Source: a virus. From it: a stretch of 14,789 bases of DNA. The first letter of the stretch is position 1; every line of letters starts with the position of its first letter. Made by a program: the position numbers and the translations under genes. Shown piece after piece: positions 7,734 through 8,317 of the stretch. A model generated the notes under the pieces. It had not been told where the DNA came from, searched no databases, and saw nothing but the letters and a program-made list of their open reading frames with translations. Location: IMG/VR virus record IMGVR_UViG_3300031673_000984; one strand, written 5' to 3'.

Positions 7734-7958
7734 TCATTTTGTTAAATTTATGTTAAGATTAAATAATTTTGCTCCAACTTCTAAAGGAAATTTAGCTCCT
7801 GTATCAGCAATATATTGTTCATCATCTAATTTATCAATTCCATCTGCATTTCCAATGAAAAAAGAATCTCCATCAAATTCATCGATAATATGAACAATAC
7901 CAATTGTTCTGGGATTTCCTAATTGGGAAAACCAATATGAATCTACTACAGTTCTCAT
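7734..7958 (-). CDS. hypothetical protein (74 aa)
   Basis: ORF from the supplied track with an ATGA overlap to the PTH2 stop. Confidence 0.5.
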   Translation of the reverse strand: MRTVVDSYWFSQLGNPRTIGIVHIIDEFDGDSFFIGNADGIDKLDDEQYIADTGAKFPLEVGAKLFNLNINLTK

Positions 7959-8317
7959 AATAATTCTTTTAAAGCAAGCGGTAACTTACTTGTTAATTTT
8001 CTTGTTTTTTCGCTAGGTTCTACCGCGATGGCAGTTATTTCATTGCCAATATCTGGTTCTCTAAAAGTGGTGGTTTTAATGTTATAGTACTTAAATTTCT
8101 CTAAATACATTGATAGATGTTCTTCGTTTTCAACGGACAAAATAATAAGATAATTGGATTGTTTATTCCAATGTTTAGCAATTTCTGGATGTTGGTGTTG
8201 AAAATCTATCCCGGCATGGGCAGATTGAACAGCTTGATAGCCAGGGTTTAAGTCTCTCCTGGTAATAATAATTAGTTTTTGATTAATCTAGCCGAATCCT
8301 TCGTCTGCTTTTTTCAT
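7955..8317 (-). CDS. PTH2-family peptidyl-tRNA hydrolase. The reading frame from ATG 8317 contains an in-frame TAG at 8288-8290. The alternatives are an ATT start at 8287 or the TTG at 8140 used by the ORF track, and the TTG start would delete the catalytic motif.
   Basis: The frame upstream of the track ORF 7955..8140 stays open and encodes INQKLIIITRRDLNPGYQAVQSAHAGIDFQHQHPEIAKHWNK..., matching the PTH2 signature (VVR.DL.MGKGK.AAQ..HA). The C-terminal part (DIGNEITAIAVEP...KLTSKLPL) aligns with the PTH2 blocks DAGRTQI..GSQTVLGIGP and KVTGHLKL. No ATG, GTG or TTG lies between the TAG and the conserved motif. Confidence 0.65.

Follow-up and report, generated by a model that had tools for sequence, protein, structure and literature searches.

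The IMG/VR virus record IMGVR_UViG_3300031673_000984 is represented here by a stretch of 14,789 nucleotides (nt), which is called the window. Its minus strand carries a gene of the PTH2 (peptidyl-tRNA hydrolase) family with an in-frame amber codon close to its start, together with a tRNA gene whose anticodon, CUA, reads that codon. The order on this strand is ATG (8317-8315), eight sense codons, the in-frame TAG (8290-8288), the PTH2 domain, and TGA (7957-7955). The leader reads ATG AAA AAA GCA GAC GAA GGA TTC GGC, and the TAG is followed by ATT AAT CAA AAA CTA ATT ATT ATT ACC AGG AGA GAC, with the reading frame staying open from the TAG to the TGA. The previous gene ends at 8362, leaving a gap of 44 nt to the ATG, and the PTH2 stop overlaps the ATG of the next gene (ATGA). 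The first ATG, GTG, or TTG past the TAG is the TTG at 8140, well within the PTH2 domain, and a mechanical list of open reading frames (ORFs) opens the gene only there because no other such codon lies between. An earlier note, made from the letters of this DNA, had described the ATG 8317 frame with its TAG, the 44-nt spacing, the lack of a canonical start between the TAG and the PTH2 motif, and an amber-type tRNA downstream on the same strand. All four descriptions hold; ARAGORN and Rfam both identify the tRNA, at a distance of 0.9 kb from PTH2. The features are collected in Table 1.

Table 1. Coordinates of the leader, the PTH2 ORF, and the genes that follow it in the window
Feature	Positions	Strand	Basis or remark
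Leader MKKADEGFG, ATG + 8 sense codons	8291..8317	-	A/T-rich upstream, AAA second codon, as usual for the phage's genes
Amber codon TAG, codon 10, next base A (TAG-A context)	8288..8290	-	Sequence reading
PTH2-family domain ORF, 110 codons + TGA	7955..8287	-	PF01981, PHROG 1866, PDB matches
tRNA, anticodon CUA, amber suppressor type	6981/6982-7054	-	ARAGORN, Rfam RF00005
Three small ORFs between PTH2 and tRNA	7734-7958, 7300-7617, 7088-7303	-	Span 7088..7958

The assignment of the gene to the PTH2 family, also made in the earlier note, is confirmed by a profile search. The ORF scores 38.2 bits on PF01981 (PTH2; E = 1.9e-9), where the cut-off is 23, covering profile positions 2-114 of 115, and the match begins four residues after the TAG. 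It also matches PHROG 1866 at 6e-17. When the family profile is compared with the PDB, solved Pth2 structures are recovered, i.e., 24bt (1.7e-10), 2zv3 (6e-9), 1rzw (1.7e-8), and human Bit1, 1q7s (7e-6). The homologue in Tenacibaculum phage pT24 scores 32 bits on PF01981. Because the Pfam match is near full length and the structures match, the PTH2 domain is complete and begins right after the stop codon. The catalytic residues of Pth2 are the Lys of a G-K motif and the Asp of D-x-G. In the family alignment, an Asp (in EPDIGN), a His (in QxxHA), and an Arg are invariant in the clade with the leader TAG, which has deletions of two and four residues.

The tRNA(CUA) is a canonical type-I cloverleaf, its D-loop standard and its variable loop 5 nt long. 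It fits the general tRNA model of Rfam (RF00005) from end to end with 62.7 bits. A 30-kb extended view of the same phage shows 14 other tRNAs at 11-17 kb upstream, with 13 grouped in a single array; tRNA(CUA) stands alone beside PTH2. An initiator-type tRNA(CUA) that starts translation at the UAG was ruled out by inspection: the 1-72 pair is formed, three G-C pairs are lacking in the anticodon stem, and the TAG always has an ATG ahead of it. The ORF directly upstream of the tRNA (7088-7303, minus strand) terminates in TAG TCT TAG, with a TAA four codons on, and thus places a tandem amber stop beside an amber suppressor. None of the three small ORFs between PTH2 and the tRNA has a family match.

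Conservation of the leader amber codon and linkage to tRNA(CUA)

The best GenBank matches of the PTH2 protein are in uncultured huge phages of 462-735 kb, and PTH2 is the sole gene that they share with the window; a megablast of the whole window against GenBank phages gave no match. The four GenBank relatives that were fetched all have an ATG, one or two codons, TAG ATT, and the domain. Scans of IMG/VR added 11 and then 80 further loci at 49-79% identity, of 263 relatives detected. For the locus search, a 16-sequence alignment (A1) proved too diverse and was divided into A2 and A3. In all 80 IMG/VR loci, an ATG, 1-14 codons, and a TAG stand immediately ahead of the domain. Removal of redundancy reduced 86 loci to 66 distinct proteins and these to 59 clusters at 90% identity. 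The leader TAG is present in 59/59 clusters. The earlier note had proposed to compare this position in orthologs, and a sense codon replaces the TAG in none of them. Between the nearest ATG and the TAG lie one codon (38 clusters), two (14), three (5), six (1), or eight (1, the window). With a TAG at the same place, 1-8 codons after an ATG, in every cluster, the feature is far beyond chance.

The base after the TAG is a purine in 58/59 clusters (p = 1e-12 against a frequency of 0.59 at the first codon positions of these genes). In Escherichia coli, a purine after UAG is a context that favours suppression. The relative L006 has a homologous nine-codon leader, MKKVNKNFG-TAG-INQK, and reads AAAAATTTTGGCTAGATT. 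The same arrangement is found in cultured phages. The leader is ATG AAA TAG ATA in Tenacibaculum phage pT24 and ATG ACT TAG ATT in Acinetobacter phage ME3; Xanthomonas phage XacN1 has AGAGGA-8nt-ATG AAG TAG ACC and Stenotrophomonas phage RAS14 has AAAGGAA-6nt-ATG AAG TAG ACC. In these four phages, the deposited starts of the genes (XacN1 ORF364, L110; pT24 BPT24_235, L113; RAS14, L114; ME3 gp266, L124) are too late and cut off conserved sequence. A start-proximal TAG is therefore a conserved and widespread module of this PTH2 clade. Leader-TAG PTH2 genes are missed or truncated by gene callers, which amounts to a systematic annotation error.

Some relatives contain TAG at other positions as well. 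Three loci (L002, L013, and L015) carry in-frame TAGs within the PTH2 domain. A distant PTH2 clade with a plain ATG start has in-frame TAGs at various internal positions in 12/59 of its clusters. Since these codons lie inside the domain, TAG must be readable in these relatives.

In several phages, the 5' end of PTH2 is duplicated, including the ATG-TAG leader, upstream of an intact PTH2 gene (L006 4226-, L007 1930-, L010 4175-, and also L031, L039, and L062). The duplicated end is fused in frame, after GYQAVQ, to a homing endonuclease of the HNH/NUMOD-like type, an event that has arisen recurrently.

Assemblies of the same phage were found through exact protein look-ups, while a search of IMG/VR for an exact 48-mer gave no hit. 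The leader, including the TAG, is identical in five independent assemblies that cover the site: ERZ27256808 and ERZ27256810 of ENA, 3300031578 of JGI, and SRR8554504 and SRR8554505 of Logan; ERZ27256828 was also retrieved. At this site, the gene callers' output for these assemblies is either a gap or a 61-amino-acid stub. The assemblies differ from one another at ~3730, in the intergenic region 3446-3919, by the presence or absence of 185 bp. The insert, found in L116 and L119, encodes a Cys-rich ORF of 55 amino acids and is missing from the window and L120.

In 68/80 loci, a tRNA(CUA) is encoded within 4 kb of PTH2 on the same strand; of the 55 loci flanked by 3 kb or more on each side, 50 have one so placed. 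In the linked loci, it is located 60-200 nt upstream or 0.5-3.3 kb downstream of PTH2. The complete 462-kb genome LR756500 has 26 tRNAs, of which one is a tRNA(CUA), 782 nt from PTH2. The linkage extends to the distant clade with plain ATG starts, where tRNA(CUA) is downstream on the same strand in 52/59 clusters at a median distance of 43.5 nt. The pairing is also seen in pT24, ME3, and the mycobacteriophages IkeLoa and Myrna; in the latter two, the tRNA(CUA) follows the PTH2 gene by 130-250 nt, and that of Myrna is annotated as tRNA-Ser. T4-like 'hydrolase' homologues without a nearby tRNA(CUA) have no TAG.

Suppressor tRNAs of other types occur near further PTH2 relatives. The Prevotella Lak phages (L111 and L112) have a PTH2-like gene with a tRNA of anticodon UUA, the ochre-suppressor type, 600-700 nt upstream, and in Lak-A2, the interval from a TAA TAA pair to the PTH2-like domain yielded no in-frame start codon. 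In L179 and L181, a tRNA(UCA), the opal-suppressor type, is near the PTH2 relative in place of tRNA(CUA).

A second gene with the same kind of leader accompanies PTH2. In L003, the gene after PTH2 begins MNT-TAG-ITFKQL and has a weak match to the HD domain. The homologous genes of L089, L101, and L106 carry leader TAGs too, the leaders of these HD-like genes being MNT*, MST*, and MSYL*, where the asterisk is the amber codon. In pT24, XacN1, and RAS14, the HD-like domain is fused to PTH2 (39% identity, E = 2e-50). Because the HD-like gene shares the leader TAG and is fused to PTH2, the gated unit is plausibly a small gene set that acts on tRNA 3' ends.

Initiation site and genome-wide use of TAG

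Any start codon other than the leader ATG would have to lie between the TAG and the domain. There is no ATG in this interval in 77/80 loci, and in the other three, the sole ATG is at or inside the first beta strand. The codon after the TAG is ATT in 36/59 clusters and GTT, GTA, ACT, ACA, ACG, AAC, AGC, CTT, ATA, or ATC in the other 23; in 19 of these 23 (GTT, GTA, ACN, AAC, AGC, and CTT), it is not a known start. In the closest relative (L005, 79% identity), the sequence is TAG GTA CAT CAA AAA CTA, and no start-like codon occurs ahead of the domain's first strand. In RAS14, the stretch of more than 20 codons past the TAG contains no start codon.

Sequences upstream of the genes point the same way. 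In the window's phage, the core of a Shine-Dalgarno (SD) site precedes 2/54 genes, compared with 14.7% of random positions, and this phage does not use SD sites. Its upstream regions are 81% A+T, and AAA is the second codon in 18/54 genes, as it is in the leader. In XacN1 and RAS14, which use SD sites, the distance from the SD fits the leader ATG. The possibility that ribosomes hop or shift frame over the TAG was ruled out, as the flanking codons are unmatched and the ORF stays in frame.

Apart from PTH2, TAG serves as a stop in these genomes. Translation of the window with TAG as a sense codon extends PTH2 and no other real gene. Of 56 genes in 30 kb of the window's phage, 37 end in TAA, 15 in TGA, and 4 in TAG, and PTH2 alone needs read-through. 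Two TAG-ended ORFs of the same phage outside the window (12291-12620 and 12624-12914 in L116) share one frame and are joined by TAG ATT ATG, so that read-through would fuse them. The hexamer TAGATT stands ahead of a long ORF in the window only at the PTH2 site. A second 'ATG AAA TAG ATT' just downstream of PTH2 in L001 was set aside because it leads to an ORF of only 12 codons.

In LR756500, long open stretches are joined by TAG in 2 cases, TAA in 63, and TGA in 23, where the TAA and TGA joins are neighbouring genes in the same frame. In that genome, 43/794 long ORFs end in TAG. Among its genes, PTH2 alone makes a convincing leader-TAG case, and internal TAG recoding is not evident; other leader-TAG candidates were rejected because they have obvious internal ATG starts, e.g., at a lipoprotein signal peptide, or are a tRNA gene. 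By its sequence, PTH2 is the single evident TAG client of the tRNA(CUA) of LR756500. Across 594 kb of flanks, ORFs that follow 'ATG + few codons + stop' number 107 for TAG, 22 for TAA, and 20 for TGA, and most of the 107 are PTH2 or duplicated PTH2 5' ends. Among the features of a code of type 15, a UAG-reading tRNA was found; many TAG-interrupted genes and avoidance of TAG as a terminator were not. Judged from 30 kb of the window's phage and the whole of LR756500, the leader-TAG phages appear otherwise standard in code, with TAG used as a stop.

A candidate amber gate on PTH2 and its alternatives

The arrangement is probably a two-part translational switch, in which suppressor-dependent read-through of the start-proximal UAG gates PTH2. 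Ribosomes would begin at ATG 8317 and meet the UAG at codon 10. The PTH2-family protein would be made only if the phage tRNA(CUA) inserts an amino acid at the UAG in competition with release factor 1 (RF1), and its output would depend on, and scale with, functional suppressor tRNA. Without suppression, RF1 would halt translation after a peptide of nine residues. Since the TAG comes right after the start, the unsuppressed product in these phages would be a harmless di- to deca-peptide. Actual read-through, and with it the amino acid inserted, is something we infer. The likely purpose of such a gate would be to match the recycling of peptidyl-tRNA and tRNA 3' ends to the level of amber suppression, which should raise read-through, non-stop stalling, and peptidyl-tRNA drop-off. 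Alternatively, it may delay PTH2 until the tRNA is mature and charged. The tRNA-PTH2 pairing exists without the TAG in the distant clade, and PTH2 is the only evident client of the LR756500 tRNA, which together suggest that the PTH2-family protein is needed because of suppression.

The earlier note had offered three explanations for the TAG, namely read-through by the phage tRNA, termination of an upstream ORF with reinitiation at the adjacent ATT, and a sequencing error. A lone in-frame stop near the 5' end does look like an error, or like a recent nonsense mutation in one sequence, but the five independent assemblies agree on an identical leader, and the TAG is kept over 59 divergent clusters with the downstream domain intact and conserved. 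Sequencing error is excluded on these grounds, and error or a decaying pseudogene taken together has next to no probability. Reinitiation at ATT, which would give a protein beginning M-N-Q-K-L, is very improbable. It draws on the AAGGA located 9 nt before the ATT in the window, on the ATT that follows the TAG in the 36 clusters, and on the mycobacteriophages, where a GTG start with a well-spaced SD directly follows the TAG. Against it stand the 23 clusters with a different codon, including the closest relative with its TAG GTA CAT CAA AAA, and the SD cores of the window's phage, which are fewer than at random positions. The AAGGA to which the earlier note had assigned the restart is missing from the homologous leader of L006, and in hosts that rely on SD sites, it is the leader ATG that the SD serves. 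The comparative evidence, which includes conservation of the TAG, the lack of an alternative start, and the linkage, favours read-through by the phage tRNA.

Two further explanations were weighed. Genome-wide reassignment, similar to genetic code 15, would make the TAG a plain sense codon with no special gating. Phage TAG recoding with a tRNA(CUA) is well documented, extra internal TAGs are present in L002 and in some PTH2 genes of the distant clade, and with 30 kb of the phage in view, late genes elsewhere could be recoded. However, TAG terminates 4/56 genes in those 30 kb, and LR756500 has its 2 TAG joins against 63 and 23 for the other stops and 43 long ORFs that end in TAG. The codon is TAG in every cluster and always 1-8 codons from the ATG, regardless of the distance to the domain, whereas an ordinary sense codon would drift to synonyms. 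Reassignment is thus quite unlikely. It is also unlikely, if a little less strongly so, that the leader acts as a minigene or leader-peptide sensor, in which an ORF of 2-10 codons ending in UAG is itself the functional element, as in the lambda bar minigenes. Through slow termination or peptidyl-tRNA drop-off, this ORF would gauge the capacity of RF1 or Pth and regulate the flow of ribosomes into PTH2, forming an autoregulatory loop. ORFs of two to three codons terminate poorly and shed peptidyl-tRNA. The 57/59 clusters with one to three codons between ATG and TAG are consistent with this, as is a downstream gene whose family clears the product of minigene drop-off. But passage into PTH2 in the same frame still requires decoding of the UAG, so a sensor of this kind would add to read-through and not replace it. 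The nine-codon leader of the window is also longer than classical minigenes, and the HD-like gene has the same leader.

Several observations weigh against suppressor-dependent gating of PTH2 or complicate it. No tRNA(CUA) is present in the DNA examined at 5 of the 55 fully flanked loci (~9%), nor within 20 kb on either side of PTH2 in two phages of ~635 kb (LR745206 and LR756504). The anticodon stem of the window's tRNA(CUA) holds two non-Watson-Crick pairs. Its likely amino acid was sought by comparison with 327 phage tRNAs and with the phage's own 14 tRNAs, and by a blastn search, and these gave a weak resemblance to Thr, Lys, or Arg tRNAs. It is 57% identical to the phage's tRNA-Gln and not a close paralogue, and its best non-CUA matches (Thr and Lys) are weak. 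The canonical catalytic Lys of Pth2 aligns with Tyr or Gln in the leader-TAG clade, and because of this replacement, the substrate of the enzyme may differ from classical peptidyl-tRNA. In the mycobacteriophages IkeLoa (L109 3983-3991) and Myrna (L123 2971-2979), the SD and the annotated GTG start of PTH2 are separated by an in-frame ATG TAG or GTG TAG. Gating may not apply to them, since the GTG that follows the TAG is an ordinary, normally spaced start.

A broader proposal is more tentative and, on balance, somewhat doubtful. Here, tRNA(CUA) and the start-proximal UAG would together be a switch of their own, dedicated and self-contained, in large phages whose code is otherwise standard. Its principal, perhaps only, client would be the adjacent module for tRNA 3'-end recycling or repair (PTH2 with or without the HD-like partner). 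The pair would indicate the condition of the infected cell's machinery for termination and tRNA, and could be the seed of a later, full recoding of TAG. If true, this would explain amber suppressor tRNAs that have long been noted as 'orphans', e.g., those of XacN1.

Neighbouring genes and comparison with known systems

Elsewhere in the window are genes of another kind. A phage-encoded protein of 811 amino acids (12220-14655, minus strand) has domains of the major vault protein (MVP), with matches to MVP_shoulder (6.8e-28), Vault_3 (1.1e-11), and Band_7. A 544-amino-acid protein (1217-2851, minus strand) has a TROVE domain like that of Ro60 and TEP1 (PF05731, 2.4e-17) and is followed by a cold-shock-domain protein (948-1142, minus strand). 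Homologues of the TROVE, cold-shock-domain, and MVP proteins are parts of vault- and Ro-type ribonucleoproteins. No Y RNA or vault RNA was found in the window with Rfam at the gathering threshold.

Pyrrolysine decoding also relies on a tRNA(CUA) that is encoded close to its client gene and reads UAG, and ARAGORN labels the window's tRNA 'tRNA-Pyl'. The tRNA here is a canonical cloverleaf, however, and does not have the atypical architecture of tRNA-Pyl. There is no methyltransferase client, and neither pylS nor pylBCD is among the Pfam matches of the window's proteins.

The gene for release factor 2, prfB, likewise has an early in-frame stop in a translation-factor gene, and its synthesis is set by the balance between termination and recoding. 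The recoding event in prfB is a +1 frameshift, which takes place at CUU UGA and involves an internal SD; the gene senses its own product. Here, the leader and PTH2 are in the same frame, and the competitor of termination would be a dedicated tRNA.

The lambda bar minigenes are ORFs of two to three codons closed by a stop and are functionally tied to Pth. They are free-standing and toxic in pth-defective hosts, whereas the mini-ORF described here is contiguous and in frame with PTH2.

The PTH2 genes of jumbo phages have been proposed to rescue ribosomes once tRNAs are cleaved (Iyer, Aravind and colleagues, PMC7824862). That study covers the same protein family and the same kind of phage, and the TAG and the tRNA link are unmentioned there. 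XacN1 has two tRNA(CUA) genes, for which its authors could not find suppressor target genes (PMC5852040); here, ORF364, an HD-like and PTH2 fusion, is seen to be preceded by SD-ATG AAG TAG. Orphan amber suppressor tRNAs of standard-code phages would thereby gain a concrete client gene, and cultured carriers are at hand in Tenacibaculum phage pT24, Xanthomonas phage XacN1, Stenotrophomonas phages RAS14/CM1, and Acinetobacter phage ME3. Physical and regulatory ties between a PTH2-like enzyme and nonsense suppression would point to a cost of suppression that phages offset.

In recoded phages, suppressor tRNA, synthetase, and release factor form code-change modules, and late genes are recoded (Borges et al., bioRxiv 10.1101/2021.08.26.457843; Peters et al., PMC9523058; jumbo-phage survey PMC13037316). 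They resemble the phages described here in having a phage-encoded tRNA(CUA) and in-frame TAG in a phage gene, and in the idea that such stops delay translation until the suppressor is present. In theirs, reassigned TAG codons are spread over numerous late, structural, and lysis genes, TAG is avoided at gene ends, and the genes for the code change keep to the standard code. Here, by contrast, the genome is standard in code, TAG is found in essentially one gene family, 1-8 codons from the start, and the gated gene is a translation-housekeeping enzyme that adjoins the tRNA. These phage recoding papers make no mention of a hydrolase or of start-proximal stops, and no prior description of an amber-gated PTH2 arrangement was found in the searchable literature, which is incomplete. 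The comparison of sequences makes it likely that these phages have a new form of phage stop-codon recoding, in which one PTH2-family gene is gated by an amber codon close to its start and is coupled to an adjacent suppressor tRNA. It would be a minimal, one-gene recoding that may be an early step to full code change, and a natural example of the amber-codon gates known from synthetic biology.

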